Source: Mustelus asterias (Eukaryota). From it: a stretch of 64,000 nt of DNA. A model generated the notes under the pieces. That model was given only the letters and a program-made list of their open reading frames with translations, ran no database searches and was not told the origin of the DNA. Within the stretch, counting starts at the first letter, position 1. Every line of letters begins with the position of its first letter. Position numbers and translations under genes: made by a program. The stretch is taken from positions 32,736,001-32,800,000 of the forward strand of contig NC_135808.1 in the NCBI RefSeq assembly GCF_964213995.1. Reading direction: 5' to 3'. Shown here one piece after another: positions 13,859-64,000 of this stretch.

Positions 13859-14541
13859 CTTCATCTCACACAACATATAAAGTGAAGTGGAAAACTGCCC
13901 AGCACCAGAAAGGTGTTTCCAACATCCTGATTGTCTTCTCCATTACCGGACGTATCACAGAGTCTTTTATACTGAGTCCAAAAAGTCTTGATCAAAATCC
14001 ACGAACATTTAAAGATATTTAAAACTCTGAGCAATCAGAAAGTGAGAAAAGTGCACAAAATGTGAATGTATTTCATTCCCAACAATCTGTCCCTCAGTCA
14101 CTGACTGGGAGCTGTTGTGTACGTCCCACTTGGTGAATCAGCAGAAGTAAAATAAATGTCAGTTAGAATGGGGAATAATCCATTCTCAGAGAGTGAGAAC
14201 ACAACAAGTGTGAGGGAATGGAGATTGTGTCAGAAATACTCATTCTCACACTCCCCTCCATCCTTACACTTTATGGAGATCCTGTAGATCACCATTCCAT
14301 CCATACTCAGTAGGTGAGGATGTGAGTGTGTGCGGTGGCTTCAATGATCAATATTACACCTGGTCTGGGCTGATCACACAAAGGAAGATCAGACAGGGAA
14401 CAAGAAGTGTTTATACGTGTGTATCTGTGTGTGGGAATTAAATCAGTTCATTCAACACAGTGTCCTGTACTCCCAGTACTGGAGATTCCCCACACTCACT
14501 CTGTCCCCTCAGTTCTATATTCCCCTCTCTCTGATTCTTAC

Positions 14542-14652
14542 CTCTCTGTTGGCTTTTCCAGATGATTATTCCGAATATAACAGCCAGTGCTGGGATTACT
14601 GATCCAATTATAATTCCAAGATGGGAGAGTACCCCACTGTTTCCCGGGATTT
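14542..14652 (-). CDS. MHC class I-like gene A, connecting peptide/TM exon
   Basis: Acceptor tttcag|, donor |gtaaga, 111 bp phase 1-1; EIPGNSGVLSHLGIIIGSVIPALAVIFGIIIWKSQQR. Confidence 0.85.
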
Positions 14653-15000
14653 CTGAAACACATTTGCATAACATGAGGATTCTCTCTGTTCCTGGATCCA
14701 TTCCCGGTTCTGTGTTCATTGGGGACAATTTGAACAGAAGCCGCCCCAGTCCAAATGGGATTGGTTGAAGCTTTGCTTTGACACTGGCCCCATGGTGGAT
14801 AAGGGAGTGTCGATGGACCTGCTCCAGATGGACTTCCAGAAGGTCATTGATCACGTTCCACACAAGAGATTCTTGACAATAATCAGAGTGTTTGGAATTG
14901 AAGGGAATCTTTGCCATGGGGTGAAAATTGATTCTCAGCGGGGAGACAGGGAATGGGGAGAATGGGAATGTGCTCGCAGATATCCAGTACAGTTCCTTAC

Positions 15001-15279
15001 CCGACTGATGGAGCTTGGGCTCTGCCAGGCTGCTGTGTTCAATTCGACAGGAGTATTGATCCTCATCCCCAGCATTTATTTCAATCTCTTTCTGGATCTG
15101 ATGGGTTCCATCGTGGTTCGGTCGAACCCCCGAGGATAGTGTCTCAGACATTACCTCTCTATTCCTTAGCCAGTTCACCTCGATGTCTGCAGGATAAAAG
15201 CCAGTAACCAGGCAGGAGAGAGTGAGCGACTTGTACTGACTATTGGGTTCACTTCTGGAGATGAAGACTTCAGGCTGAA
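15001..15279 (-). CDS. MHC class I-like gene A, alpha3 (C1-set Ig) exon
   Basis: 279 bp, AG/GT flanked; LSCLVTGFYPADIEVNW...VRPNHDGTHQI...YSCRIEHSSL. Confidence 0.95.
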
Positions 15280-15395
15280 CTGTCATGGGAAAGGGTGAAA
15301 ACACAAACAATAAACCCACACTGAATGGAATGGGAGAACGGTTTGATAATCAGTGAAGTTAGATCAGAACATGGGCTTAAAACTGAAATCAATAC

Positions 15396-15671
15396 CTTTC
15401 CGTCCAAAATATTCTTCTCCAGCTTCCAAATATTTATTTAAATGTTGAACAAATGCTTCCTGCAGATATTTTTCCCAGTAATTATTCCAGGATTGATCAG
15501 AATCCCATTTCTCTTTAGTCTTCACTGCGAAGTGATTGGACGCGACCCATCTCATTCTGTCTGGCTCTAAACTAATATAGTCCTTTCCATCAAATCCAAA
15601 CCGCATCCGTCTCTTAATGGAGCCGTCTTCAGTGACCTCGACAGACCGAATCCATTGAAGAACGTGAATTC
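15396..15671 (-). CDS. MHC class I-like gene A, alpha2 exon
   Basis: 276 bp, AG/GT flanked; GIHVLQW...FGFDGKDYISL...KTKEKWD...YLQEAFVQHLNKYLEAG; contains no cysteine. Confidence 0.93.
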
Positions 15672-15812
15672 CTGTGAGAACCAAACAGGGATCAATAATC
15701 AATAGACAATCTTTTCAGTGGTGAAAGGGGATTTAGTCTGAGATAGAAATGGACGGAATCTTCCTGTGCCATCAGTAGCAGGAAGCTGAGCGGTGAGGTT
15801 ACAAAATTAGAT

Positions 15813-16854
15813 AGGGTCAGTGCTGGGGGACTGAGTTCAGTGTCTCAGGGGTCAGTGCTGGGGGACTAAGTTCAGTGTCCCAGGGGTCAGTGCTGGGGGA
15901 CTGAGTTCAGTGTACCAGGGGTGAGTGCTGAGGGACTGAGTTCAGTGTCCCAGGGGTGAGTGCTGGGGGATGGAGTTCAGTGTCCCAGGGGTCAGTGCTG
16001 AGGGACTGAGTTCAGTGTACCAGGGGTGAGTGCTGGGAGATACTGACATTTATTTATTAGTCACAAGTAAGGCTTACATTAACACTGCAATGAAGTTACT
16101 GTGAAATCCCCCTGGACGCCATATGGAGCCTGTTTGGGTACACTGAGGGAGAATTTAGCATGGCCAATGCACCTAACCAGCATATCTTTCAGATTGTGGG
16201 AGGAAACCGAAGCACCCGAGGAAACCCACGCAGACATGGGGAGAACGTGCAAATTCCACACAGACAGTGGAGCCAAGCCGGGAATCGAACCCAGGTCCCT
16301 GGCACTGTGAGGCAGCAGTGCTAACCACTGTGCCACCGTGCTGCCCCTGGACTGAGATGGACTGAGTTCAGCGTCCCAGGGGTCAGTGCTGGGGGACTGA
16401 GTTCAGTGTCCCGGGGTCAGTGCTGGGGGACTGAGTTCAGTGTCCCAGGGGTTAGTGCTGGGGGACTGAGTTCAGTGTCCCCGGGGTCAGTGCTGGGAGA
16501 TGGATTGAGTTCAGTGTCCCAGGGTCAGTGCTGGGGGATTGAGTTCAGTGTCCCAGGGGTCAGTGCTGGGAGATGGTTTGAGTTCAGTGTCCCAGGGGTC
16601 AGTGCTGGGAGATGGATTGAGTTCAGTGTCCCAGGGGTCAGTGCTGGGAGATGGATTGAGTTCAGTGTCCCAGGGGTCAGTGCTGGGAGACTGAGTTCAG
16701 TGTCCCAGGGGTCAGTGCTGGGGGATTGAGTTCAGTGTCCCAGGGGTCAGTGCTGGGAGATGGATTGAGTTCAGTGTCCCAGGGGTCAGTGCTGGGAGAT
16801 GGATTGAGTTCAGTGTCCCAGGGGTCAGTGCTGGGAGATGGATTGAGTTCAGTG
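15813..16854. repeat. Intronic minisatellite (about 34-38 bp unit), split by a SINE
   Basis: Tandem gagttcagtgtcccaggggtcagtgctggg(ggact/agatggatt), about 20 copies. Confidence 0.95.
16049..16346 (-). mobile_element. HE1-like V-SINE (tRNA-derived)
   Basis: Head ggcacagtggttagcactgctgcctcacag...gggttcgattcccgg and V-domain gggtttcctcgggtgc. Confidence 0.88.
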
Positions 16855-16898
16855 TAAGGTTGTACATTGACACACTGTTTCTCTCTGCCTGATCTTAC

Positions 16899-17157
16899 CG
16901 GATGTCTGGTTTGTGATCTTCAGCACTGTATTCAGATTCTCCTTCACCATGTCTGAGTGTGAGTTCACCAGTTCTGAGATATAGTCCCAGAATTCAGAGT
17001 CGATATTTTCAGCCATGAACCTCTGTCTGGGAATGCAGCGACGGATATTACTGTCACTATGTCCTGTTTGGACACCATTGGTCATTGCAGTGCTTGTAAC
17101 CGCAGGAAAATCTTCCATCCCAGAGACAACAGTGTACATCACCGTGTGTGTTAGTGT
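16899..17157 (-). CDS. MHC class I-like gene A, alpha1 exon (259 bp, apparently frameshifted near its 5' end)
   Basis: Acceptor tttttacag|, donor |gtaaga; MYTVVSGMEDFP...IPRQRFM...EFWD...TNQTS with the conserved N86 glycosylation site; length is not a multiple of 3. Confidence 0.85.
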
Positions 17158-17229
17158 CTGTAAAAAGAAACAGTTAAAGGGATTGGTCAATAAACACCGG
17201 TCTGATCGTCAGAACGATCTCGCTGGACT

Positions 17230-18880
17230 TCACCATCCCCCCTCCCCAATCACCACCCCCTCCCCAATCACCACCCCCTCCCCAATCACCACCCCCTCCC
17301 CAATCACCACCCCCTCCCCAATCACCATCCCCTCCCCAATCACCACACCCTCCCCAATCACCACCCCCTCCCCAATCACCACCCCCTCCCCAATCACCAC
17401 CCCCTCCCCATTCACCACCCCCTCCCCAATCATCACCCCCTCCCCAATCACCACCCCCTCCCCAATCACCACCCCCTCCCCAATCACCACCCCCTTCCCC
17501 AATCACCATCCCCCTCCCCATTCACCACCCCCTCCCCATTCACCACCCCCCCAATCACCACCCCTACAGAGCCCCCCCAAACATCATCCCCTCCTCTCGA
17601 TCGCCACCATCCCCCCTCCCCAGTCACCACCCCATCCCCGATCACCACCATCCCCTCTCTCCAGTCACCACCCCCTCCCCCGATCAACACCTCCTCCCCA
17701 ATCACCACCCCTACAGAGCCCCCCCAAACACCGCCCCCTCCCCCGATCACCACCCCACCCCCCGATTACCATCCCCTCCCCCGATCACCACCCCATCCCC
17801 CGATCACCACCCCATCTCCCAGATCACCATCCCCTCCCCCGATTACCACCCCATCTCCCAGATCACCACCCCCTCCCCCGATTACCATCCCCTCCCCCGA
17901 TCACCACCCCATCTCCCAGATCACCACCCCCTCCCCCGATCACCACCCCATCCCCCGATCACCACCCCATCTCCCAGATCACCACCCCCTCCCCCGATTA
18001 CCATCCGCTCCCCCGATCACCACCCCCTCTCCCGATCACCAACCCCTCTCCCGATCACCACCCCCTCCCCCGATCACCACCCCCTCCCCCGATCACCACC
18101 CCCTCCCCCAATCACCGTCCCCTGCCCCATCACCCCTTCTCGATCACCACCCCCTCCTCGCAATAACCATCCCCTCCTCCCCCCCATCACCACCTCCTCT
18201 CCCCAATCACCATCCCCTCTCCCCAGTCACCACCCCCTCTCCGCCCCTTTCCCCGATCACCACCCCCTCTCTCCCCGATCACCACCTCCTCTCTCCCCGA
18301 TCACCACCCCCTCTCTCCCCAATCACCACCCCCTCTCTCCCCGATCACCACCCTCTCTCTCCCCGATCACCACCCCCTCTCTCCCACCACCCCCTCTCTC
18401 CCCAATCACCACCCCCTCTCCCCCGATCACCACCCCCTCTCTCCCCAATCACCACTCCCTCCACGATCACCACCTCCTCTCCCCAATCACCATCCCCTCT
18501 CCCGAGTCACCACCCCCTCTCTCCCCGATCACCACCCCCTCTCTCACCGATCACCACCCCCTCTCCCCAGTCACCATCCCCTCTCCCCGATCACCACGCC
18601 CTCTCTCCCCGATCACCACCCCCTCTCTCCCTAGTCACCACCCCCTCTCCCCCAATCACCACCCCCTCTCCCCCGATCACCACCCCCTCTCCCCCGATCA
18701 CCACCCCCTCTCTCCCGGATCACCACCCCCTCTCCCCTGATCACCACCTCCTCTCCCCAGTCACCATCCCCTTTCCCCAATCACCACCCCCTCATCCCAA
18801 TCACCACCAGAGCCCCCCGAACACCACCCTCTCCTCAATCAGTCACCACCCCTACAGAGCCACCCCCCGAACACCACCCC
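17230..18880. repeat. C-rich minisatellite (about 18-22 bp unit)
   Basis: Tandem ccctccccaatcaccacc and variants. Confidence 0.95.
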
Positions 18881-20217: not shown

Positions 20218-20975
20218 TGTAAGGGACTGAGGAAAATTTGTGGGGAAGACATTTACCAGTGTTCTTTGTCCCTTGTGGGTTTCAGTATCCTGTTTGCCGG
20301 GTGGGTGCTGTGAACAGGATGCTGTTGGTTGAGTGATGTGGGCTGGGCCAATGGGATTGCTCTGGGGGCGGGAGGAAAAAAAGGCACCAGGAAGTGAAGC
20401 AGCTGCAGAGCTGAAGAGGGAGAGAGCTGAAGAGGGAGAGAGCTGAAGAGGGAGTGTGCAGAGAGAGAGAGCTTTTTCCGGGCAGTGAGAATTCGGTTTG
20501 GAGTGAGAGGCAGCCAGGCGTTCCCCTGCCTGTTCTTTTCATTACTGCCGAGGAGGACAGCATTCAGCGCACTCGACCTACTTTGCTGCATGGATAGCTC
20601 GCGGCACCTCTGCCTCCTGCGGCATCATCTTCCATACGTGTGTCTCTTCTGGACTGTGTGTGTGTGTCGTGAGTACCTGGTGGGGACTATACAATCCAAC
20701 TGGAACAGTATCTACAAATGTGTTACTGAGGATGAGTTTCCCCATGTGTGCACCAACGGATGGGCCCCAACGGTTATAGATCAGAGCTCACTGTTTTATG
20801 TCTGTTAATGATATTTGTTATTAAATTTATTTTTGATATTCCGATTACACTACCGACATTTATGGGTAAACAGGGAATTAGCCAAATCAACATCAACCAC
20901 TCGGAATTCGGGATCCTGTTGATTGAATATTTAAATAGTAGCCCCATATAGTGGTCAGCAGGGGGTTACATTTTT

Positions 20976-20993
20976 TGGAGGCACCGCTGAGAT
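20976..20993 (+). promoter_or_regulatory. Primer binding site, tRNA-Thr(AGU)
   Basis: tggaggcaccgctgagat matches 17/18 the complement of the vertebrate tRNA-Thr(AGU) 3' end as recalled (TGGAGGCACCGCTGGGAT). Confidence 0.75.
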
Positions 20994-21107
20994 CATTCCT
21001 GTTTACCAGACAGGTCAAATAAAAAAATTTTCCCCGTCAGTCAGTAACAGTTAATCCAGTAATTACAACAGGAAAAGGTTTACAGTGTTAGTAGCTCACT
21101 TAAGACG

Positions 21108-22502
21108 ATGGATTTTTCTCAGGCTGCTGACTGGAGCCGCCAAAAGAATATCAGTCTTTCTCGTGGCATATTTCTGAGCAATGTGCCAATAGATACGAGT
21201 GAGGAGACCATTGCTAGGGTCTTAAACACAGTGAAAGTCTTTGGTCGCACCAAGATTTGTGGTCGCCGTGGGGATTCTACCGGCACACAGTTGTTCATAC
21301 TAGTGGAGACTAGCATTGATTTAACCCCTGACACTGTACCTCCAGATGTAGGTATTGAAGGAGAAGCTGGGCCATGGGCTGTACATGCGCTAGAAAGCTT
21401 GGACACACAGGATGCTGTTCCTGAAGAGGATGCTTTCCATCCAAAGCTGTTGTTACGACTACAACAGGAAGGCAAGTCAATGGAGGATTTTCAGGCCATA
21501 GTATCAGAAAATCAAGCTCCCAAAGTGGATGTGAACATGGATTTAGTGACTGCTATTGGCAAACTGGTGGACAAGTGCAACCAAGTGTCTACCGATGGGC
21601 CTAGCTACAGAAAGCTGAGACTGTTTTCAGGACTGAAACCTGTACCCCCAGGTGAGGAAGAATACGATGCCTGGATGGAGCAGGCTACCCAGATGATCAA
21701 TGAGTGGCAATGCACTGACGCCACCAAGAGACAGCGTATAGTGGAGAGTTTAAAAGGGCCTGCTGCTGACATCGTTCGATTTTTGAAAGTTAGCACTCCC
21801 ACTGCTACGGCCACCAATTATTTATCTGCTCTGGACACAGCTTATGGCACCACAGAGAGTGGAGCCGACATCTTGGCCAAGTTCAGACACACATACCAGG
21901 ATGAAGGAGAAAAACTCTCTGCTTTTCTATATCGCCTTGACAAACTTCTCCATCGTGCTCTTCTTAAGGGAGGAATTACGGCTGCAGACATGAATCGAGC
22001 TCGGATGGAACAGCTAGTCAAGGGTGCACTCACTCGAGACATGGTTGCTCTGTGTGTAAGGATGAGCCACACTATGGACAAACCCCCTTCCTTCTTCCAG
22101 CTGATGCGGGAGGTAAGAGAGGAAGAAAATTGGATTAGCGCCAGAGAAGGGGTGAAAGCTACTGCCACCGCAGCCACCGCCAGTGTACCGCAGTCCTCAG
22201 TTACGTCTGAATTGAACAGCCTGCGAAATGAGGTAAGGGAACTGACTTCTCAGGTGGCCAGACTGTTGAGCGCCGTTCCAGTTACCCCTACATCTGAAAG
22301 TATGACAGCAAGGACTGGGTACATACAGCAAGCGCCAGAAGCTGCTATTCGGGACGCGTTGCCCCGAGTGAAAATGTCCAAACCACTGCCAGCAGGAATC
22401 TTTTGCTACAGGTGTGGGCAAGATGGGCATACAAGGAGAGAGTGCAAAGAACTCAAGGATCTGAGGAAAGTGAATCAGAAGCTGATCAAAGCAAGCAGAT
22501 AG
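21108..22502 (+). CDS. gag: Gypsy Gag, PNMA/MOAP1-like, 464 aa, open
   Basis: YRKLRLFSG...PGEEEYDAWMEQA...KRQRIVESLKGPAADIV; YQDEGEKLSAFLYRL; CCHC knuckle CYRCGQDGHTRREC. Confidence 0.9.
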   Translation: MDFSQAADWSRQKNISLSRGIFLSNVPIDTSEETIARVLNTVKVFGRTKICGRRGDSTGTQLFILVETSIDLTPDTVPPDVGIEGEAGPWAVHALESLDTQDAVPEEDAFHPKLLLRLQQEGKSMEDFQAIVSENQAPKVDVNMDLVTAIGKLVDKCNQVSTDGPSYRKLRLFSGLKPVPPGEEEYDAWMEQATQMINEWQCTDATKRQRIVESLKGPAADIVRFLKVSTPTATATNYLSALDTAYGTTESGADILAKFRHTYQDEGEKLSAFLYRLDKLLHRALLKGGITAADMNRARMEQLVKGALTRDMVALCVRMSHTMDKPPSFFQLMREVREEENWISAREGVKATATAATASVPQSSVTSELNSLRNEVRELTSQVARLLSAVPVTPTSESMTARTGYIQQAPEAAIRDALPRVKMSKPLPAGIFCYRCGQDGHTRRECKELKDLRKVNQKLIKASR

Positions 22503-25500
22503 CAGAGAAACTTCTCAGGAGCCATGTGAAGGAACGGTGCTTGGTTCCGTGTGAAATACGTTCCACCCACTGTCCACCCCCAGCGAAGCAAGGCTCAAAA
22601 CAGTTACCTGCAGGATTAGTGGGGCCCATCTCTGGTGTACCTGTGCAAATAGAAGGAGTTTATGCAAGAGCTTTGCTTGACAGTGGCTCCCAAGTAACCA
22701 TTTTGTATCGCAACTTCTACGACACTTACCTGAAACACTTACCTCTCCAGCCACTTGAAGACCTGGAAATATGGGGTTTAAGCTCTCACCAATACCCATA
22801 TGATGGCTACCTGTCCATACAACTCGAGCTCACTGCCGCTGTAACCGGAGTGCCGCAGACAGTTGACACTTTGGCCTTAGTATGTCCTGACCCTGTGAAA
22901 GATGACAACATTGCCGTGCTGGTGGGGACAAATACCCGGCTGGTGAGAGAGTTGGTGGAGTCCTGTAAAGAACAGGCGGGAGAACGCTTCTTGGGTACTT
23001 TGACCATACACCCCGTCCTCCGAGAAGCTTATGAGACACTCACCCAGGCTGAAACAACAGAAGGGGTAGACAAGCATGGTACTGTGTGGTTTACCCAGCA
23101 CAAGCCAATCACCTTGCAATCAGGACAAGTGTTTAAAGTCACTGGCCTCCCAAAGTTTCCTGGTGATTTCACAGACCAGCTAGCACTGGTAGATCAGCCT
23201 ATTGACACTTTTTCCCCTGAAGAGTTGTGGGTGAGGCCTGAGGTTCATCTTGCATCAGTTGTTTCCAGCAGACGCATTACTGTGACTGTGAAGAACCTGT
23301 CATCCAGAGAAATCTCCTTGAAACGTGGGACTCCAGTAGCCCATATTTTTCCAGTAGCCCCTGTTCCTCTGCCGAGGGCACAGTGTGCGGATAAAGCTGC
23401 AATCGAACTGACCCCTTCCTCTTTTGACTTTGGAGCCTCTCCTATGCCAGAGGAGGCAAGGAGGCGTCTCTGTGAGAGAATGATGGAGAGGAAAGAGGTT
23501 TTCTCTCAGCACGAGTGGGATGTAGGTTGTTCTAAAAGCACCAGACATGAAATAAGACTGAAGGATGCAAGGCCCTTCCGAGAGAGGTCACATCGCTTGT
23601 CGCCTGCTGACTTTGAGGATGTGTGCCAGCACCTATAGGAACTACAAAGTCATGGCATCATCTCTGAATCGCGTAGTCCCTACGCATCGCCAATAGTAGT
23701 CGTACGCAAGAAGTCAGGGAAGGTACGAATGTGCGTGGACTACCGAACCCTTAACCTTCGAACAATACCGGACCAGTACACTGTCCCAAGGATAGAAGAC
23801 GCTCTTCACTGCTTGTCTGGGAGTAAATGGTTCACAGTCCTCAACCTGAGGAGTGGGTACTATCAAATACCCATGAGTGAGGCTGACAAGGAGAAGACCG
23901 CTTTTATCTGCCCATTGGGTTTTTATCAGTTCGAACGCATGCCTCAGGAAATTTCAGGAGCACCGGCCACTTTTCAGAGAGTCATGGAACGTACTGTCGG
24001 CGACATGAACTTTCTGGAGGTGTTGGTGTACCTGGATGATCTCATTGTGTTTGGACGAACCCTCGAAGAACACGAGGATCGGTTGCTCAAAGTGCTTGAC
24101 CGGCTCCAAGAAGAAGGTCTGAAGCTGTCGCTTGACAAGTGCCAGTTTGGCAGGACTTCTGTCACCTACGTTGGACATGTAGTGTCGCAGGACGGAATAG
24201 CGACAGACCCATCCAAGGTAGAGGCTGTTGTCTCCTGGCCAAGACTCCAAACGGTGACAGAGCTCAGATCCTTCCTTGGATTTTGTGGCTACTATCGCCG
24301 CTTTGTCAAGGACTTCTCCAAACTCTGCCGTCCCCTCAACGGACTCCTTCAAGGATATCCTCCCCGTCCCTGCTCCAGGGGGAGTCAGACTGCAAACTCA
24401 TCTGACAAGACTTACTTCAAGCCTTCTGAACCCTTTGGCTCTCGGTGGAGTGAGCAATGCGATCATGCTTTCCAAGGACTCAAGACCCGGCTCACCAAAG
24501 CCCCTGTATTGGCATTCGCAGATCCACAGAAGCCTTACATTCTGCACGTGGCTGTTAGCCTGGACGGACTAGGTGGTGTCTTATACCAAGAGCATGATGA
24601 TGGTCTACGCCCAGTTGCATTCATCAGCAGAAGTCTCTCGCCATCTGAGAAAAACTATCCAGCGCACAAACTGGAGTTTTTAGCTCTCAAGTGGGCTATT
24701 GTGGATAAGCTACATGACTATCTTTACGGAGCTACTGTACAAGTCAGAATGGACAACAATCCCCTGACATACGTCACAACGTCAGCTAAACTGGATGCCA
24801 CTGGTCATCACTGGCTCTCAGCACTGTCCACCTACAACTTTAGCCTTAAGTATAGACCAGGCCAGCATAACCTTGACGCAGACTCATTGTCTCGACGTCC
24901 ACATGACAGCATGACACCAGATGATGAATGGCAAGAAATCCCAGTTCCAGGAGTGCGGGCTCTCTGTCAGACTGTGTCGAGTAGCACACAAGCAGGACAC
25001 TCCTATCCATGTGTGATCGAACAAATAGGGGCTCATGTGTCTGCAGTTCCCAAGGCTTTCTGTCATACCGTTGCAGTAGTAGCTGATCAGCTGCCCAATT
25101 TCAGTCCAGCAGAGCTTCAAGCTGCTCAGAAAAGCGACCCGTGTATAGGAGAAATATGGCTAGCTGTCAATCAGAAGGCAACGGCAAGTCAAATACAGAC
25201 AAACCATCCTGATCTTACACTTCTGAAACGAGAGTGGGGGAAGTGGTCAATCGAGCAGCGTCTGCTTTACAGGACAGTCAAACAGTCTGACCTACGCTTA
25301 CGGCGACAGCTTGTGCTCCCCAAGCAGTTCCACCGTATGATTCTGAAGTCACTGCATGACAACAATGGACATCTGGGATTTGACAAGACCTATGCACTCG
25401 TATGTGACAGATTCTTCTGGCCCCGCATGAAGCTCGACGTAGAGACATACTGCAAGACATGTGAACGCTGCATTAAGAGAAAGACTCTGCCACAGAGAGC

Positions 25501-27055
25501 AGCACCACTTTCCCACATCCAAAGTTCAGGCCCTATGGATCTTGTATGCATTGACTTTCTCTCCATAGAACCTGATTCCCGCAATGTGTGCAATGTGTTG
25601 GTAGTCACTGACCACTTCACTCGGTATGCACAAGCATTCCCAACCAAGGATCAGAGAGCCATAACGGTTGCCAGAACTCTATGGGAGAAATACTTCATTC
25701 ACTACGGCCTACCAACTCGCATACATTCAGACCAGGGTCGGGATTTTGAAAGCCAGTTGGTGAGAGAAATGTTGACCATGTTGGGTGTGAGGAAATCAAG
25801 AACTTCACCATACCACCCACAAGGTGACCCTCAACCAGAGAGGTTCAATAGAACCCTGTTGAACATGCTAGGAACTCTTGAGCCCAGTCAAAAGTCCAAA
25901 TGGAGTCAGCACATTGCACATCTGGTCCACGCGTACAACTGTACCCCAAATGAAGCTACCGGATATTCACCCTACTTTTTAATGTTTGGGAGGGAAGCCA
26001 GACTTCCTGTGGACGTTTGCTTTGGCGTGTCAGCGGATGGGACCTCAACAACTTCCCACTTGCAGTTTGTGTCGAAGATGAAGAAAGAGCTGCAAGCAGC
26101 CTATCAGTTGGCCCAAGCCACTTCTGCGAAAATGAACCAAAGTAACGAGGAGAGGTATGACCAGAGAGTGCGCTACCATTGCTTGAAGCCTGGGGATAGA
26201 GTCCTCATTCGAAACTTTGGCCTGAAAGGGAAACAGAAGCTTGCTGATCGGTGGAGTGCAAATCCTTATGTGGTTGAGAGTCAAATGTCTGATCTTCCTG
26301 TTTATCGTCTAAAGCCTGCAGATGGTTCGGGACCCATTAAGGTCATGCACCGAAATCATATTTTGCCCCTGGGACAAGAGGTCAAATTGAGCACTGAGGT
26401 TGACTCAAAGCCTACTCCCTCTCCAAGAGCCCTCAGGCGCAGAAAAGCAAAAGAAAGGAATCAAACTCCTGAGGTTCACAAAGATGACTCCGCAGCTGAT
26501 GTGCCCCTGGGAGATCAAAACTCTTCAGACTCAGAGTCAGAGTATGGACATTACCCAGAGGACTTGATCATTGACAATCCGGAGGGAATCTGTGAACAAC
26601 CGGAACAGGATGTCATGCCTACAGAGTCCAATCCCCTCACAAATGCTACAGAAGTGACAGAAGTCGCAGCGAGCTCAGAATCTTCAGAAGGGCTACCTGT
26701 TGTGATAGAAGAGGGAGTAACTGAGCAAAGGGAAGTAGAATCAGACAGTTCTGTTGAGAGCACTTACACTACAGACACATCTAACATAGCCAATCCAGAA
26801 CCAGAGATAAGGAGATCACAGAGAGAGAGAAAGCCAGCAGACCGTTTCCATTATACAAAGCTGGGAGAGCCGTGTGCAAAGTCTGTAGTTGTAGGACATA
26901 CAAGTGTTCACTCAGCTACGCCACCCACTATGCATTTTCCTGAACACTGCAATAGTTGTCATACATGGTGGTGTAACTCCTTTGCTCAGTGCTCGTCATG
27001 TATAAATAAGGTACCACTCTTTTCACCCACTATTATACCAGTCATCACACTATAA
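22403..27055 (+). pseudogene. pol: Gypsy Pol (PR-RT-RH-IN) in the -1 frame to gag, one in-frame stop
   Basis: LLDSGSQ, YLDD, HHCC, CIDF/HSDQG/PERFNRTL. TAG at 23636-23638 separates two same-frame ORFs. RT first Asp reads LNL and RNase H Asp reads HVAVS. Confidence 0.93.
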
Positions 27056-27974
27056 GGTACATGGTGTAATTGGTTAACTGGGTCCTATGTCATGTACTTC
27101 AGCATGGGGGCATGCTGTATTTTTGGTGGGGGGAGAATGTAAGGGACTGAGGAAAATTTGTGGGGAAGCCGTTTACCAGTGTTCTTTGTCCCTTGTGGGT
27201 TTCAGTGTCCTGTTTGCGGGGCGGGTGCTGTGAACAGGATGCTGTTGGTTGAGTGATGTGGGCTGGGCCAATGGGATTGCTCTGGGGGCGGGAGGAAAAA
27301 AAGGCGCCAGGAAGTGAAGCAGCTGCAGAGCTGAAGAGGGAGAGAGCTGAAGAGGGAGAGAGCTGAAGAGGGAGTGTGCAGAGAGAGAGAGCTTTTTCCG
27401 GGCAGTGAGAATTCGGTTTGGAGTGAGAGGCAGCCAGGCGTTCCCCTGCCTGTTCTTTTCATTACTGCCGAGGAGGACAGCCTTCAGTGCACTTGACCTA
27501 CTTTCCTGCACGGATAGCTCGCGGCACCTCTGCCTCCTGCGGCATCATCTTCCACACGTGTGTCTCTTCTGGACTGTGTGTGTGTGTGTCGTGAGTACCT
27601 GGTGGGGACTATACAATCCAACTGGAACAGTATCTACAAATGTGTTACTGAGGATGAGTTTCCCCATGTGTGCACCAACGGATGGGCCCCAACGGTTATA
27701 GATCAGAGCTCACTGTTTTATGTCTGTTAATTATAATTGTTATTAAATTTATTTTTGATATTCCGATTACAGGACTGACATTTATGGGTAAACAGGGAAT
27801 TAGCCAAATCAACATCAACCGCTAGGAATTCGGGATCCTGTTGATTGAATATTTAAATAGTAGCCCCATATAGTGGTCAGCAGGGGGTTACAAAGGTATT
27901 CATGGCCATTTGTTTGTAAGCAGCCAATAGTTACAGTGGAGATAGTCTGATGGCCTCACCAATTTCAGTAAAAT

Positions 27975-28655
27975 ATCCCTATTCCTGTACTCAAATCCTC
28001 TCGCTATGAAGGCAAGCATACCACTGCCTGCTGTACCTGCACGCTTACTTTCAGCAACTGATGCACAAGGACACCAAGGTCTGAGTATCCACCTCTATCA
28101 ATTTACACCCATTCAAATAATAATCCGCCTTCCTATATTTGTTACCAAACTGGATCACCTCACATTTATCCACATTGTATTCCATCTGCCATGCATATGC
28201 TCACACACTCAGCCTGTCCAAATCACGCTGAAGCATGTCTGCACCCTCCTCACAACTCACCCTCACACCCAACTTTGTATCTACCCAGCTGCAAATTTGG
28301 AGATAATACATTTAGTTCCATCTTCAAAACCATTAATATATAATGTGAACAGTTGAGGTGCGAACACAGATCCCTGCGGAACCCTACTAGTCACTGACGA
28401 CCAATCAGCAAAAGACCCATTTATTCCAACTCTTTGCTTCCTATCTGCTAACCAGCTTTCCATCCATCGCCAGACGCTACCTGTAATCCCGTGCGCATTA
28501 ACTTTACAGAGTAGTCTGTTTTGTGAGACCTTGTCAACAGCCTTTTGAAAATCTAAATAAACCACATCCACTGGTTCTCCTCAGTCAACTCTACTCGTTA
28601 CATACTCAAAGAATTCCAGTAGATTCGTCAAGCATGATTTCCCCTTTGTAAATCT
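27975..28655 (-). mobile_element. CR1 LINE fragment
   Basis: DVVYLDFQKAVDKV...VPQGSV...KFA. Confidence 0.85.
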
Positions 28656-29150
28656 CTCCCCAAAAGTCTGTGTGTGCTGGGAGACAGCTGATATTTTCCA
28701 CATTGAGATGGAGAGATTTTTATTGGGTCAGAGCAGCGAGAGATATGGAGCAATAGTGGGGAAATGGAGCAGAGGAACAGACCAGTCAGGATGTGAATGA
28801 ATGGTGGAACACAATCAAGGGGCTGAATGGCTGGCTGCTGTTGCTAAATTTCACATGCACATCCGCACACTACAGTAACCACAGAACAGTTCGACAGTTC
28901 CTTACCCGACTGATGGAGCTTGGGCTCTGCCAGGCTGCTGTGTTCAATTTGACAGGAGTATCAAAATTGATCGAGTTTTTCGAGGAAGTGACGAAGATGA
29001 TTGATGAGGGTCGGGCAGTGGATGTTGTCTACATGGACTTCAATAAGGACTTTGACAAGGTCCCTCATGGCAGACTGGTGCAGAAGGTGTAGTCGCATGG
29101 GATCAGAGATGAGCTGGCAAGATGGATACAGAACTGGCTCGGTCAAAGAA

Positions 29151-31079: not shown

Positions 31080-31912
31080 GTAATGCATTTTGGAAGGTCT
31101 AATACAGATAGGAAATATACTGTAAATGGCAGAACCCTTGAGAGTATTGATAGGCAAAGGGATCTGGGTGTACAGGTACACAGGCCATTGAAAGTGGCAA
31201 TGCAGGTGGAGAAGGTAGTCAAGAAGACATACGGCATGCTTGCCTTCATCAGCCGGGGTATTCAGAAGGATGTGGAGGCTTTGGAGAGGGTGCAGAAAAG
31301 ATTTACCAGGATGTTGCCTGGTATGGAGGGCATTAGCTATGAGAAGGGGTTGGAGAACCTTCGTTTGTTCTCACTGGAGTGACGGAGGTTGAGGGGAAAC
31401 CTGATAGAAGTCTACAAAATTATGAGAGGCATGGACAGAGTGGATAGTCAGAAGCTTTTTCCCAGGGTGGAAGAGTCAATTACGAGAGGGCATAGGTTTA
31501 AGGTGCGAGGGACAAGGTTTCAAGGAGATGAACGAGGCAGATTTTTTACACAGAGAGTAGTGGGTGCCTGGAACCTGTTGCCAGGGTCGGTAATGGAAGC
31601 GGATACGGTGGTGACTTTTAAGGGGTGTCTTGACAAGTACATGAATAGGATGGGAATAGAGGGATATGGTCCCCGGAAGGGTAGGGGGTTTTAGTTAAGT
31701 CGGGCAGCATGGTCAGTGCAGGCTTGGAGGGCTGAAGGGCCTGTTCCTGTGCTGTAATTTTCTTTGTTCTATTGATCCTCATCCCCAGCATTTATTTCAA
31801 TCTCTTTCTGGATCTGATAGGTCCCATCGTGGTTCGGTCGAACCCCCGAGGATAGTGTCTCAAAATTACCTCTCCATTCCCTCGCCAGGTCACCTCGATG
31901 TCGACAGGATAA

Positions 31913-32066
31913 TACACAGTAAGAGTTTTAACAACATCAGGTTAAAGTCCAACAGGTTTATTTGGTAGCAAATGCATTTGCTACCAAATAAACATGTTGG
32001 AATTTAACCTGGTGTTGTTAAAACTCGTACTGTGTTTACCCCAGTCCAACGCCGGCATCTCCACAT
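31913..32066 (+). mobile_element. Penelope pLTR-derived hairpin insertion
   Basis: About 60-bp inverted arms centred on aatgcatt (31971-31978); TSD acaggataa. Confidence 0.85.
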
Positions 32067-32944
32067 ACAGGATAAAAGCTAGTAACCAGGCAGGAGAGAG
32101 TGAGCGACTTGTACCGACTATTGGGCTCACTTCTGGAGATGAAGACTTCAGGCTGAACGGTAATGGGAAAGGGTGAAAACACAAACAATAAAACCACACT
32201 GAATGGAATGAGAGAACGGTTTGATAAATCAGTGAAGTTAGATCAGAACATGGGCTTAAAATTGAGATCAATACCTTTCCTTTTGAAATGTTCCTTTGCT
32301 CTTTGTAAATATCATTTTAAATTCTGGACACCAACTACTTTCAAACTTTGTTTTGGAAACTCATTCCGGGATTGATCTGAATCTGACTTCTCTTTAGTCT
32401 TCACTGCGAAGTGATTGGATGTGACCCATCTCTTTCGATCTGGCTCTAAACTAATATAGTCCTTTCCATCAAATCTAAACCGCATCCATCTCTTCATGGA
32501 GCCGTCTTCAATGACCTTGACAGACCATATCAATTGAAGAATGTGAATTCCTGTCAGAAACCAAAAAGGAATCAGTAATCCATTGTTCATGAAAATCTCA
32601 CACTATCCAATCAGAGAAAAAGGGGACTTGAAATTAATGATGCAAGAGGGCTAGAGAATTTCAACTGTTACTGTCTTGTTCAATATGGACAGAAAGTACC
32701 TTGTGATGGATTTGTCAGCGAAATTGAAATCCCCAGGATAAAGTAGACAACAACAGAACATATACTAATTTGGTTTAGGGATAGAAAAACTTAAGAACAA
32801 ACAGACATGAGAACAGCAGCAGGAATTTGTCATACTGCTCCACAACCCTGCTCCAACACTCAATATGATTCTGGCTAATCTTTTGCTTCAACTCCATTTT
32901 CTCAACACTACGTCACATCATTTGATTGCCCAAGTAACCAAAAC

Positions 32945-33948: not shown

Positions 33949-33974
33949 TAAGACTCACAAGCCTTTTTTTTGTC

Positions 33975-34416
33975 ACAGACATTACCTCTCCATTCCTTAG
34001 CCAGATCACCTCGATGTCTACAGGATAAAAGCCAGTAACCAGGCAGGAGAGAGTGAGCGGCTTGTACTGACTAATGGGTTCACTTCTGGAGATGAAGACT
34101 TCAGGCTGAACTGCAAAGGGAAAGGGTGAAAATACAAACAATAAACCCACACTGAATGGAATGGGAGAACGGTTTGATAGATCAGTGAATTTAGATCAGA
34201 ACATGGGCTTAAAACTGAAATCAATACCTTTCCGTCCAAAATATTCCTTTCTGGCTTTGAATATGTTTTTAAATTCTTGACACCTACTTCCTCTGTACTC
34301 CATTTCCAAAACTTGCTCCAGGATTGACCCAAATTGCATGTCTCCTTAGTCTTCATTGCAAAGTGATTGGACGTGACCCATCTCATTCTGTCTGGCGCGA
34401 AACTAATATAGTCCTT
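33975..34416 (-). pseudogene. MHC class I-like fragment C (3' part of alpha2 34228-34416; 5' part of alpha3 33975-34110)
   Basis: DYISFAPDRMRWVTSNHFAMKTKE with a frameshift; VQPEVFISRSEP...SCLVTGFYPVDIEVIW, truncated. Confidence 0.88.
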
Positions 34417-44784: not shown

Positions 44785-47700
44785 TGTGGTGAACCATAGA
44801 TGGTTACCACTATGGGTACTTGTACATATGTTACTCTTGTTACTGTTGGGGTTAGGGTTGGGGTGTTCCACCTGTTAGCATTGTTCTGTGGTACACTCCG
44901 GTTGGCTCCGCCTCCCTATAGGAGTATAAAGGTCACTGCACTTCCGAGTGACCCTTTAGTCTGGGATTGTATTGTTAAGCAGTATGCTCCATTCTTGTTG
45001 CTAATAAAAGGCTTTATTTCCCGGGTACGATCCAGCCTCCCGAGTGAATTAATCGCGCATCAATTTTATTGGCAACTATTTTGTTTGAAGAAAAAAAAAC
45101 CATGAAGCAAATGTTAAAACCCGATCGGCGTACCTTAGATCCGCGTGCCGCTGGAGCGTCGAACACTTTCGACCATTGGTTGAAGTGTTTCCAGGATTAT
45201 ATCGACGCCTCAACAGCAATCCAAAACGACGCCGATAGATTGCGGGTCCTCCACGCAAGGGTAAGCGACACTGTGTATGCAACAATCCGTGATGCCCAAG
45301 ACTACAAAGGGGCCATCGAGCTACTTAAGAAGTTGTACAACAAACCGCCAAACGAGATTCATGCTCGGCACCTACTAGCCACTCGACGGCGGCAGCCCGG
45401 CGAAACGACGGGACAGTACTTGCGCGAACTTCAGCAGCTAGTCAGAGCCTGCAATTGCAAGCCAGTGTCGGCTACCCAATATACTAACGATCTGATCCGA
45501 GATGCGTTCGTGGCGGGAATCGGCTCATCCTATATTCGCCTGCGGCTGCTAGAGCAAGGTAACTTGGACCTAGCTAAGACGGTGGAATTGGCTGATGCGA
45601 TGGAAACGGCCTCCAGAAGTCTTGAAACTTACCCCACCGACCACGTGGGAACATCGTGGCAAGTACAGCCACCGACTCAACTCCACCCAGCGGCTCCTAG
45701 GAACTGTGCGATCGTGCTTTCAACCTCGGACCTGACGGTGGCGGCAGCTCCAGGTGGCCCGCGGTGCTATTTCTGTGGATTGGCGAAGCACCCTCGCCAG
45801 CGATGTCCGGCCAGAACGGTATTTTGCTCCACGTGAGGGAAGAAAGGGCACTATGCTAAAGTGTGCCGAGCGAAACCACCTTCGAAGCCAAGCAGTGCTG
45901 CGTGTGACTCTCCAGGACCTGTCTCCTCGTCTCCGGCTTCGTCGAGGTCTTCAACCACGTGCGATTCACGAGCGCCGCCATTCCTGCGGACGACGACGCA
46001 AGACACGTGCAACCTGCGAGTGCCGCCACTTTCAACACCATCGACCACGTGCGATCCATGGGCGCAGCCATTTTGGTCGACACCGACCGCAGACGACCAG
46101 CAGGGGTCATCATCATCGACCATCTCAGCTGCCTGCAGTTGCACTCAAGATTCAACGGTGGCGTCAATCATCCTGGACCAGGCCAAGCCTCACAGACTCG
46201 ACAAGTCCATGATGGACATAGAGGTAAACGGACACCTGATACATTGTCTGTTTGACAGCGGGAGCACGGAGAGTTTCATTCATCCAGACACCGTGAAATG
46301 GTGCGGTCTCCGAGTACAGACTGTCAGACAGACAATTTCTATGGCGTCGAGGTCCCGATCTGTTACCGTTCTTGGGAGCTGCGTGGTAAACCTAACGGTG
46401 CGGGGCACAGTTTATGAGAACTTCAGGCTCCTCGTGTTACCGCACCTTTGCGCTCCGATACTCCTGGGACTAGACTTTATGGTCCACCTGAGGAGTGTGA
46501 CCCTGCAGTACGATGGGCCACTCCCTCCACTTTCAGTGGGAGAACAGCAGCCTCCAAATTGCCCAGCGGGCTCCACGTGCAGTCTCTCGACACTCAGAAT
46601 CACCCCGCCGTCTTTATTTGAAAATCTCGTGCCAGGCTGCAAGCCCATCGCAACTAAGAGCAGGCGTTACAGCCCTGAGGATCGGATCTTTATTCGATCT
46701 GAGGTTCAGCAGCTCCTCAGGGAAGGGATCATTCAACCTTGCACTAGCCCATGGAGAGCACAAGTCGTGGTGGTTAAGACTGGAGACAAGCCCCGGATGG
46801 TCATAGACTATAGTCAGACCATTAATAGGTACACGCAGCTGGACGCGTACCCTCTCCCGCGCATATCTGACATGGTCAACCAGATTGCGCAGTACCGGGT
46901 GTTCTCCACCATCGACTTGAAGTCAGCCTATCACCAGCTCCCCATTCGCCCAGAGGACCGAAAATATACGGCCTTTGAGGTGGATGGTCGTCTCTACCAC
47001 TTTTTAAGGGTCCCCTTTGGAATCACGAATGGGGTCTCGGTCTTCCAGCGTGCAATGGACCGAATGGTGGACCAAAACGGGCTACGGGCTACCTTCCCGT
47101 ACCTGGACAATGTCACTATCTGCGGCCATGACCAGCAGGACCACGATGCCAACCTCCTAAAGTTTTTACGCACTGCGTCTCGCCTGAATCTGACCTATAA
47201 CAGGGAGAAGTGTGTATTCAGCAAGCGCCGCCTCGCAATTCTCGGATACATGGAGGAAAACGGGGTCCTCGGCCCTGATCCAGACCGTATGCGTCCCCTC
47301 CTTGAAATTCCCCTACCCACCAGCGTCAAAGCACTGAGAAGATTCTTAGGCTTCTTCTCGTATTACGCACAGTGGGTTCCCAATTATGCGGACAAAGCCC
47401 GTCCGCTCATAAAGTCTACCTCTTTTCCCCTGGCAGCAGAGGCTCGCTTAGCCTTTGAAGGGATAAAAGCTGACATTGCGAAGGCCACGATGCACGCTGT
47501 CGATGAGTCCATCCCCTTCCAGGTGGAGAGTGATGCATCTGATTTCGCCCTGGCCGCCACACTTAACCAGGCGGGCAGGCCCGTCGCCTTTTTCTCTCGC
47601 ACCCTCCAAGGCCCTGAAATTTGGCACTCCGCTGTGGAAAAAGAGGCTCAGGCCATTGTGGAGGCCGTCCGGCATTGGCGCCATTACTTGGCTGGAAAAC

Positions 47701-49435
47701 GTTTTACCCTGCTCACGGACCAGCGGTCCGTGGCATTCATGTTCAACAACACGTTAAGGGGTAAGATCAAAAATGATAAAATCTTGAGGTGGAGAATTGA
47801 ACTCTCCACCTACAACTATGATATCATGTACCGTCCGGGGAAGCTCAATGAGCCCTCAGATGCCCTGTCGTGTGGAACATGCGCAGTGTGCACCAGGACC
47901 GGCTACAGGCCCTCCACAATGATCTCTGCCATCCGGGGATCACTCGGCTCTTCCATTTTGTAAAGGCCTGGAATCTGCCCTACTCCGTAGAGGATGTCAG
48001 GTCAATAACTCGAAGCTGCCAGGTATGTGCTGAATGCAAGCCGCACTTCTACAGACCTGACAGGGCACACCTCATTAAGGCCACTTGCCCTTTTGAACGA
48101 CTGAGTGTTGATTTCAAGGGCCCCCTTCCTTCGACAGATCGGAATGCGTACTTCCTCAACGTGGTTGACGAGTACTCACGATTCCCTTTTGCCATTCCCT
48201 GTTCAGACATGACCGCTGCCATGGTTATCAAAGCCTTGCGGGATCTTTTCACCCTGTTTGGTTACCCCAGTTATATCCACAGTGATAGGGGTTCGTCGTT
48301 TATGAGTGACGACTTGAGGCAATACCTGCTCTCTAAAGGGATTGCCTCAAGTAGAACTAAGAGTTACAACCCATGGGGTAATGGACAGGTCGAAAGAGAA
48401 AACGCTACAGTCTGGAAGGCTGTCTTACTGGCGCTGAGGTCTAAGGGTCTTCCAGTCTCCCGTTGGCAAGAGGTACTTTCTGATGCGCTCCATTCAATCC
48501 GGTCCCTCCTGTGTACGGCAACCAATGCTACCCGACATGAGCGGATGTTTACCTTCCCTAGGAAGTCTTCCTCTGGGACCTCACTGCCGTCTTGGTTGAC
48601 GTACTCAGGACCTGTCCTCCTGGGGCGGCACGTTAGGACCCGCAAGTCCGACCCTTTGGTTGAACAGGTCAATCTCCTCCACGCCAACCCTCAATATGCC
48701 TATGTAGCATATCCTGACGGGCAAGAGGACACGGTCTCTATTCGAGATCTGGCGCCTGCAGGGGACCTGGAAAACCCCGTCGCTCCCGCACCCCTGGTTA
48801 GGGACCCCTTGCCCTTTATCTCCCCTCCTGACACGGCGCGGGCAGTATCGGGACCACCACTTAATCCTCTTACTCCCGTGTACAGCTTGCCTGAGTCCAG
48901 GAGATTGTCGCCACCTCGTGGTCCACCCATCCGTGAGGAACTGGAGGAGTCACTGGACACCGCCTTGGAAAGAGGGTCATCACGGTCACCAGAACCGGCG
49001 CTACCGCCAGTGTTGAGGAGGTCGCAGAGACGGTGCGGCCCTCCGATACGACTTAACTTGTGAATATCTGGACAGTTCGTACTGTTTTTTTTTGCCCACC
49101 GGCCTTTGTTTTTAAAGGAGGGGTGAATGTGGTGAACCATAGATGGTTACCACTATGGGTACTGAACCATAGATGGTTATCACGATGGGTACTTGTACAT
49201 ATGTTACTCTTGTTACTGTTGGGGTTAGGGTTGGTGTGTTCCACCTGTTAGCATTGTTCTGTGGTACAATCCGGTTGGCTCCGCCTTCCTATAGGAGTAT
49301 AAAGGTCACTGCACTTGCTAGTGACCCTTTAGTCTGGGATTGTATTGTTAAGCAGTATGCTCCATTCTTGTTGCTAATAAAAGCCTTTATTTCCCGGGTA
49401 CGATCCAGCCTCCCGAGTGAATTAATCGCACATCA
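44785..49435 (+). mobile_element. Full-length compact Gypsy LTR retrotransposon (defective)
   Basis: LTRs 44785-45062 and 49128-49435 (TG...CA); 5-bp TSD aaagc; PPT aaaggaggggtgaa; the 3' LTR carries a 30-bp tandem duplication. Confidence 0.97.
45102..49063 (+). pseudogene. Single gag-pol ORF broken by one stop and one frameshift
   Basis: TGA at 45834-45836 replaces the Cys in knuckle CST*GKKGHYAKVC; FDSGS protease; YLDN RT; ESDASD RNase H; frameshift at about 47885; HHCC and VDFKGP/HSDRG/QVER integrase. Confidence 0.92.
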
Positions 49436-62598: not shown

Positions 62599-63560
62599 AT
62601 TGTGTGTATGAGAGAGAGAGAGATGGGTGTGTGAGAGAGGGTGTTTGTGAGAGAGAGAGAGAGAGAGTAGAGAGAGAGATCGAGAGACAGTAAGTGACCC
62701 ACTCAGTGCTCTGTGTGACACACTACCCACCTCCTGACACCCTCCAGGATGAACACCTCCCTCTTCTCCCTCAGTCTCCAGCGTTGCAACCAGATTGGTA
62801 TTGATGGACTGCCATGAGCAGCCTTTCCCCTAGTGTCTGTGGCTATGACTCATCTTTCATTCCCTCACCCTGCAGTAAAAATATCTCTCACTTTCTATGC
62901 CTTTTAGCTTGGACAAAAGATCATCCAGACTTGAAACGTCAGCACTTTTTCTCCTTACAGATGCTGCCAGACCTGCTGAGATTTTCCAGCATTTTCTCTT
63001 GGAATCTAGGACACAGTGACAGCCTCAGGACAAAGAGAGAACCATTTAGGGCCGAGATGAGAAGAAATTTCATCACAAAGGCTTGTGAATCTTAGTAATT
63101 CTCTCTACCTCGGAGTATTGTGGACACTTTACCATTGAATATCTTTAAGGTGAGAATTGACAGAGTTTTGGTTACTTGGGCAATCAAGTGATATGGCTTA
63201 CTGCTGAGAAAATGGAGTTGAAGCAAAAGATTAGCCAGAATCATATTGAGTGTTGGAGCAGGGTTGTGGAGCTGTATGACAAATTCCTGCTGCTGTTCTC
63301 ATGTCTGTTTATTCTTAAGTTTTTCTATCCCTTAACCAAATTAGTATATGTTCTGTTGTTGTCTACTTTATCCTGGGGATTTCAATTTCACTGACAAATC
63401 CATCACAAGGTACTTTCTGTCCATATTGAACAAGACAGTAACAGTTGAAATTCTCTAGCCCTCTTGCATCATTAATTTCAAGTCCCCCTTTTTTCTCTGA
63501 TTGGATAGTGTGTGATTTTCATGAACAATGGATTACTGATTCCTTTTTGGTTTCTGACAG

Positions 63561-64000
63561 GAATTCACATTCTTCAATTGATATGGTCTGTCAAGGTCAT
63601 TGAAGACGGCTCCATGAAGAGATGGATGTGGTTTGGATTTGATGGAAAGGACTATATTAGTTTAGAGCCAGATCGAAAGAGATGGGTCACAACCAATCAC
63701 TTCGCAGTGAAGACTAAAGAGAAGTCAGATTCAGATCAATCCCGGAATGAGTTCCCAAAACAAAGTTTGAAAGTAGTTGGTGTCCAGAATTTAAAATGAT
63801 ATTTACAAAGAGCAAAGGAACATTTCAAAAGGAAATGTATTGATCTCAATTTTGAGCCCATGTTCTGATCTAACTTCACTGATCTATCAAACCATTCTCC
63901 CATTCCATTCAGTGTGGGTTTATTGTTTGGTGTTTTCACTCTTTCCCATTACAGTTCAGCCTGAAGTCTTCATCTCCAGAAGTGAGCCCAATAGTCAGTA
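63561..64000 (+). pseudogene. MHC class I-like pseudogene D (alpha2 63561-63836; alpha3 from 63955, runs off the window)
   Basis: Near-identical inverted paralogue of copy B with the same TGA (63797-63799); alpha3 acceptor intact. Confidence 0.9.

Follow-up and report, generated by a model that had tools for sequence, protein, structure and literature searches.

The window analysed here, a 64,000-nucleotide stretch of Mustelus asterias DNA, carries a member (copy A) of a multicopy non-classical MHC class I family that lacks the disulfide bond of the alpha2 domain. Loss of this disulfide is real and rare, and it is a lineage trait. The family is very likely the described shark UEA lineage, and copy A itself, which is frameshifted and leaderless, is a broken duplicate bordering a cluster of non-classical class I genes. 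The C101–C164 bridge is described as well conserved and as stabilising the part of the groove that is unsupported by Ig domains (PMC8236899). As a discovery the loss is minor, because the lineage has been described, the missing bond is already visible in published reference sequences and can be read from published queries, and copy A is broken. The 12 complete paralogues found elsewhere in the genome, which lack the bond and are under purifying selection, provide a test case: they could show how a class I groove manages to fold in its absence, and what the functionally uncharacterised UEA proteins bind.

Copy A lies on the minus strand and comprises an alpha1 exon (16899–17157, 259 bp, with Cys45 and the N86 glycan site), an open alpha2 exon (15396–15671), an open alpha3 (Ig C1) exon that retains both Ig cysteines (15001–15279), a connecting peptide/transmembrane exon whose splice joints appear in paralogue transcripts (14542–14652), and a cytoplasmic exon of 13 residues plus stop that matches the tail of paralogue P0004 (14098–14138). 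Its alpha2 domain features V101, F164 and H167, contains no cysteine, and retains Y123, T143, K146, W147, W152, W156, Y159 and Y171. Residues were numbered by hand against the alignment in Suppl. File 10 of PMC10751288, and the near-identical paralogue P0003, aligned to solved class I chains, likewise places V at 101 and F at 164. The exon read-out thus bears out the residue calls of the original prediction, namely a cysteine-free alpha2 exon in copy A, V in place of C101 in copies A, B and D, F (A) or G (B, C and D) in place of C164, retention of T143, K146, W147, Y159, Y171 and N86 in copy A, and its groove losses Y7V, Y59F, R84I and W167H. Introns 2 and 1 of copy A contain GC-rich tandem arrays (15813–16855 and about 17220–18860, respectively), the latter giving rise to spurious long proline/histidine-rich ORFs.

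Copy A lacks the attributes of a functional gene for which it was examined: a leader exon, an in-frame alpha1 exon, intact splice sites and transcripts. Its alpha1 exon measures 259 bp, compared with 261 bp in all seven paralogues with a scored exon length, two bases having been lost from an (AC)n run near 17143; these bases are present in paralogue contigs, and their loss is read from the genome assembly and was not seen in the contig pieces compared. The exon is therefore out of frame with a phase-1 leader and reaches a stop after about 33 codons. A leader exon query matched the genome 23 times, with no match between 32.602 and 33.54 Mb, which leaves the window and its surroundings without a leader. 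At 14139–14140, the splice acceptor of the cytoplasmic exon is TG in place of AG, and all four runs compared across the joint 14138–14542 show the AG letter. Over the alpha1 stretch 17031–17115, copy A is present without difference in contigs of two DNA-like runs from one sample, whereas two spliced runs have both extra bases and, at positions 17061, 17081, 17082 and 17085, no letter specific to copy A. Rare variants are lost from contigs, and the DNA run is possibly the one from which the assembly was made.

The loss of the 5′ part of the gene coincides with an LTR retroelement (20218–27892, plus strand, 7.7 kb) that has 97% identical LTRs and long gag/pol-like ORFs and occupies the former intron 1 of copy A. 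Intron 1 homology with three paralogues stops at 20221, at the start of the element. No target-site duplication was found for this element, and its far flank consists of the 3′ remnant of another paralogue (27893–28972, minus strand), which holds an alpha3 end with stop followed by the intron downstream of it and is 98% identical to the L016 gene. Together, these features point to a deletion, which would have taken the leader and promoter of copy A. The RefSeq model XP_078075277.1 (13091–34868) covers four exons of copy A and draws its first pieces from about 34 kb. Its alternative first and last exons were considered as a rescue of copy A and rejected, since the model borrows an alpha3 part from copy C and has no signal peptide; it also ends in an unrelated last exon. 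We therefore flag XP_078075277.1 as a chimeric model built on a pseudogene. Model P0001 likewise joins two adjacent genes.

The remaining copies in the window are no better preserved, and none of the four is intact. Copy B (31772–32551, minus strand) features an alpha2 exon (32276–32551) with V101, G164, W147S and an in-frame stop, followed by disrupted alpha3 pieces at 32066–32158 and 31772–31926. Copy C (33971–34416, minus strand) comprises the 3′ half of alpha2, with G164, a frameshift near its end and the 101 region missing, and the 5′ half of alpha3. Copy D (63560–64000, plus strand) is an inverted duplicate of copy B, 96.5% identical over 915 bp, and includes an alpha2 exon (63560–63835) with V101, G164, W147S and an in-frame stop as well as the start of alpha3. 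No alpha1 exon was found for copies B, C and D, and the masked stretch upstream of copy D is shorter than such an exon. More gag/pol-like ORFs are located at 45048–49060.

With all four window copies defective, pseudogene decay within the window would be one explanation for the missing cysteines, and the proposal that their loss across four paralogues marks a lineage trait is weakly founded as an argument, because it draws on pseudogenes and fragments. The trait itself stands, as it is found in 12 complete paralogues, in homologues from 12 named shark species and in spliced transcripts. A genome search recovered 18 alpha2 matches, all on contig C8 and 14 of them at 32.31–32.80 Mb. Position 101 is V or I in each of the 17 scored genome copies (C101 in 0/17), and C164 occurs in one. 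By combining genome matches to leader, alpha1, alpha2 and alpha3, we assembled 12 complete paralogues with these exons in order, open alpha1 and alpha2 frames, and V/I101 throughout; the set excludes L004, which has no leader match, L007, B and D, which carry stops, and also A and C. The predicted multicopy non-classical family with intact members lacking the bond is therefore present in the genome. Its transcripts are also spliced: the leader–alpha1, alpha1–alpha2, alpha2–alpha3, alpha3–transmembrane and transmembrane–tail joints are all found in the X21 and X22 contigs, and most of them in X1. These transcripts come from close paralogues of copy A and were read as contigs from runs whose kind is not on record.

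The same pattern extends across sharks. A protein search returned 79 homologues, of which the 78 named ones are all from sharks and represent 12 species, including Mustelus asterias' own models; the search was word-limited, so that absence outside sharks carries little weight. Among the 81 alpha2 domains of these homologues, C101 is found in none of the 77 that cover the position, which is occupied by V, A or I. A lone, unpaired C164 occurs in 8/79 covered domains and L, F, Y, W or V in its place in 58/79, and W147 is present in 80/80. The absence exceeds chance, as a control on the best 150 cluster representatives shows: of their 194 alpha2 domains, 172 span both positions and 162 of these retain both cysteines, while the three that lack both are members of copy A's own family. 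Both alpha2 cysteines are likewise retained in the UAA, UBA, UDA, UFA and UGA queries of Suppl. File 10 (PMC10751288), and in 9/9 copies of UAA and UBA/UDA/UFA/UGA type examined in this genome. No statement of cysteine loss in UEA was found in the titles and abstract openings searched, which is not evidence of unpublished status.

Selection on the 12 complete paralogues points the same way. Their dN/dS is 0.45 in 43 groove codons (bootstrap 0.28–0.67) and 0.44 elsewhere, indicating purifying selection, and no positive selection was found in the groove codons by this measure. Groove sites are nonetheless more variable than the rest (entropy 1.16 versus 0.81, p = 0.004); the codons behind both comparisons are those that we take to line the groove. 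With V/I101 in the complete paralogues, V, A or I in 77/77 covered homologous domains, a dN/dS of about 0.45 and spliced transcripts, decay is refuted as an explanation for the family, and we assign it practically no probability. Eight homologues scattered on the tree, including L011 (C8, 32.48 Mb), carry C164 without C101, a free cysteine that was either retained or regained. Several members lie outside the main cluster on C8, namely L005 (3.66 Mb), L013 (33.55 Mb), L033 (33.62 Mb), L051 (39.69 Mb) and L017 (40.14 Mb). Of these, L005 is complete, and 29 Mb of the contig separates it from the cluster, at odds with published accounts that confine class Ib genes to the MHC clusters.

The assignment to UEA is based on the position of the family beside UDA and UFA, its monophyly, and its close match to a nurse-shark query that also lacks C101 and C164. 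In the published description, multicopy UEA adjoins single-copy UDA, UFA belongs to the same cluster, and UBA lies in a distant one (PMC10751288). Correspondingly, on contig C8, the family cluster at 32.31–32.80 Mb has as its neighbours UDA (32.27–32.28 Mb) and, at 32.23 Mb, a UFA gene that matches 8GM8; UGA-like genes are located at 31.05–31.15 Mb, UAA-type genes at 35–43 Mb and a UBA-like cluster at 21.6–24.7 Mb. UEA is reported to lie between brd2/b2m and hsd17b8/rxrb/slc39a7/col11a2 (PMC10751288). We found a BET exon at 33.87 Mb, 1.1 Mb from the cluster and not assignable to BRD2, and ZIP exons at 26.76 Mb on its other side, which had no match among solved structures. These exons lie on the sides expected and are candidates for the brd2 and slc39a7 flanks of UEA. 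Beside UGA, at 31.15 Mb, a class I gene with both alpha2 cysteines (L043) forms a long branch and has no clear match to any of the labelled queries.

The nurse-shark query, Gcirratum_UCA_NODE_26056 (PMC10751288 Suppl. File 10, Verissimo 2023), features V101 and L164. Compared by eye, copy A is identical to it at 64 of 92 alpha2 positions (about 70%) and 75 of 93 alpha3 positions (about 81%), and the alpha1 domain of paralogue L008 at 57 of 83; the alpha1 type of copy A is only about 33% identical to this L008/nurse-shark type. In an alpha2 tree, the family (52 rows) splits from the UAA/UBA/UDA/UFA/UGA outgroups (9 rows) with support of 99/99, and a quick alpha3 tree separates 49 family rows from 8 outgroup rows with an SH-aLRT of 96. 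These trees took in 35 of the 79 homologues, with outgroups and locus labels assigned by eye from Suppl. File 10, and they set the family off as a single clade from UAA, UBA, UDA, UFA and UGA; the phylogeny suggested in the original prediction is thus realised for alpha2 and alpha3, without dogfish UCA and the nurse-shark query, which the search for cluster representatives did not return, or any other published reference.

Since the closest published query is labelled UCA, a likeness judged by eye, and the string 'UEA' is absent from the supplement of PMC10751288, taking 'UCA' as a working name for UEA is our inference. The label also leaves room for a separate unnamed lineage, one that is UEA's sister or that extends spiny dogfish UCA (AF515705, PMC10751288 Suppl. 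File 10) across sharks. The dogfish protein resembles the family in its W97, V101, W152 and W156 and in the loss of both cysteines, with V at 164. However, its alpha2 identity by eye is about 31/92 (about 34%), as against 64/92 for the nurse-shark query, and T143, K146 and W147, which the family retains, are lost there. Tests for likeness to dogfish UCA and for classical class Ia (UAA) residues both came out negative: compared with the class Ia anchor list Y7, Y59, R84, T143, K146, W147, Y159 and Y171 (PMC4364491), Y7 and R84 are missing in all 12 paralogues, as is C101. According to a review from 2025, UBA and UEA are the only class I families that have expanded in sharks (PMC12562908), and in this genome the second expanded cluster resembles UBA. 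As the chromosomal position also fits UEA, we regard an unnamed lineage as very improbable. The suggestion that the family might be new is not upheld: position, monophyly and the nurse-shark match place it in the described UEA, and both the nurse-shark query and dogfish UCA already lack the two cysteines, the outcome that the original prediction itself named as speaking against novelty.

Assignment to UEA also agrees with the general features of that lineage. Almeida 2021 reportedly found UEA confined to sharks, without rays or chimaeras, and its peptide-anchoring residues are said not to be conserved and its groove to be relatively hydrophobic. The family is likewise multicopy and MHC-linked, neighbours the single-copy UDA and UFA, was recovered from no group but sharks in our search and is partly devoid of anchors, and no lineage-level difference from UEA was found; copy A itself differs in being a pseudogene. 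The complete paralogues retain 4–6 of nine anchors, and the groove hydropathy of all 12 (−0.26 to 0.86) exceeds that of both UAA-type genes (−0.28 and −0.43), a moderate rise in that most paralogues stay below UGA (0.85), several overlap UBA (0.09) and L013 is marginal against UAA. Shark UAA (6LUP) and UBA/UDA/UFA/UGA share fold, exon layout and chromosome with the family, but the UAA-type genes retain 8–9 of nine anchors as well as C101 and C164.

The groove of the family is polarised: the anchors for the C-terminal end of a peptide are invariant, and the loss of the disulfide goes together with that of the N-terminal end. Y123, T143, K146, W147, W133, M114, F118, W152 and W156 are invariant in all 12 paralogues, Y7, R84 and W167 are lost in all of them, and Y159 is lost in nine. 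This agrees with the half-conserved groove proposed from copy A. In class I geometry, the lost disulfide sits at the same groove end as the lost P1 residues. Also invariant are H93, Q96, D119, G120 and D122, which we take to be beta2-microglobulin contacts. An AlphaFold2 model of paralogue P0004 adopts a class I fold with a mean pLDDT of 83 (94–96 over the alpha2 helix) and matches class I chains with target-normalised TM scores of 0.83–0.91; the input alignment comprised 16 distant class I rows and AlphaFold is biased toward this fold, making the model weak evidence of real stability. The bulky or hydrophobic residues at position 164 in 58/79 homologues are consistent with packing on V101. 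It is likely that such hydrophobic 101/164 packing substitutes for the disulfide and that the chain still binds beta2-microglobulin.

What the intact proteins bind can be approached from the same residues. We tentatively suggest that they anchor a ligand by its C-terminal end and leave the N-terminal end open, an arrangement that would suit N-extended or N-acylated peptides, as in chicken MHC-Y YF1*7.1. The latter presents N-myristoylated peptides (PMC12212280). A member of a class I-like gene cluster and among the fold matches of our model, YF1*7.1 would be a functional analogue only: it belongs to another lineage, is about 31% identical, retains C164 and has a known ligand. Alternatively, the paralogues might present lipids or small molecules in the manner of CD1, MR1 or MHC-Y, with the F-pocket residues as structural remnants. 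The bulky W152, W156, M114 and F118 are invariant and W97 is usual, the groove is more hydrophobic than that of UAA, MR1 appears along with YF1*7.1 among the fold matches, and the adjoining UFA and UGA are reported as lipid binders (personal communication in PMC12562908). T143, K146 and W147, invariant in 12/12 with W147 in 80/80 homologues, are nevertheless more than remnants would show, and classical BF2 chains outrank YF1 and MR1 in the fold search, a ranking that tracks sequence likeness. We consider lipid or small-molecule presentation possible but doubtful.

Unlikely, in our estimate, is that the proteins are ligand-free, serving as stress ligands or receptor partners like MIC or HFE, with a collapsed groove that tolerates loss of the disulfide. 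The many bulky groove residues and the lack of positive selection in groove codons would fit such a role, but the greater variability of groove positions and the retention of beta2-microglobulin contacts and C-terminal anchors argue against it. MICA has an extra alpha1 disulfide, which a C36 plus C45 pair in the alpha1 hairpin of three copies resembles. The three are L021, L020 and L022, the alpha1 exons of L002, L004 and L003, respectively, which are the closest paralogues of copy A. The pair could possibly form a new alpha1 disulfide; a lone C45 is present in 29/73 homologous alpha1 domains.

Under C-terminal anchoring, the intact members would fold with beta2-microglobulin, with V101 and a bulky residue at 164 packing hydrophobically in place of the disulfide, and would hold the C-terminal end of the ligand in a more hydrophobic groove, where Y123, T143, K146 and W147 would grip its C-terminal carboxyl. 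With Y7, R84, W167 and the neighbouring disulfide gone, the P1 end would be open and flexible. Each paralogue might then offer innate-like T or NK-type receptors N-extended or N-acylated peptides, probably of microbial origin. We read the cluster as turning over through birth and death of copies, alpha3 being homogenised within each species: in the trees, alpha3 falls mostly into groups of one species or order and alpha2 types cross orders, which suggests alpha3 homogenisation and old groove types. A more far-reaching proposal, which we hold to be quite improbable, is that UEA as a whole is a 'one-ended' class I lineage for N-acylated or N-extended microbial peptides, in which the alpha2 disulfide went along with the entire P1 anchor network and the C-terminal anchors became fixed, and in which one sub-lineage, that of the closest paralogues of copy A, gained a new C36–C45 disulfide. 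If true, one-ended UEA would provide a class I groove that naturally does without a disulfide, and no lipopeptide-presenting system would be older.

Outside the family, L063 (6460–6923, at about 32.2855 Mb on C8) carries an exact match to the UEA-type leader exon, 6 kb upstream of the UDA alpha1 exon. About 460 bp of its flank is 95% identical, it is in phase with UDA alpha1, and a crude scan found it to be the sole leader-like exon. This arrangement may mean that, in this genome, UDA has acquired its leader and promoter from UEA.
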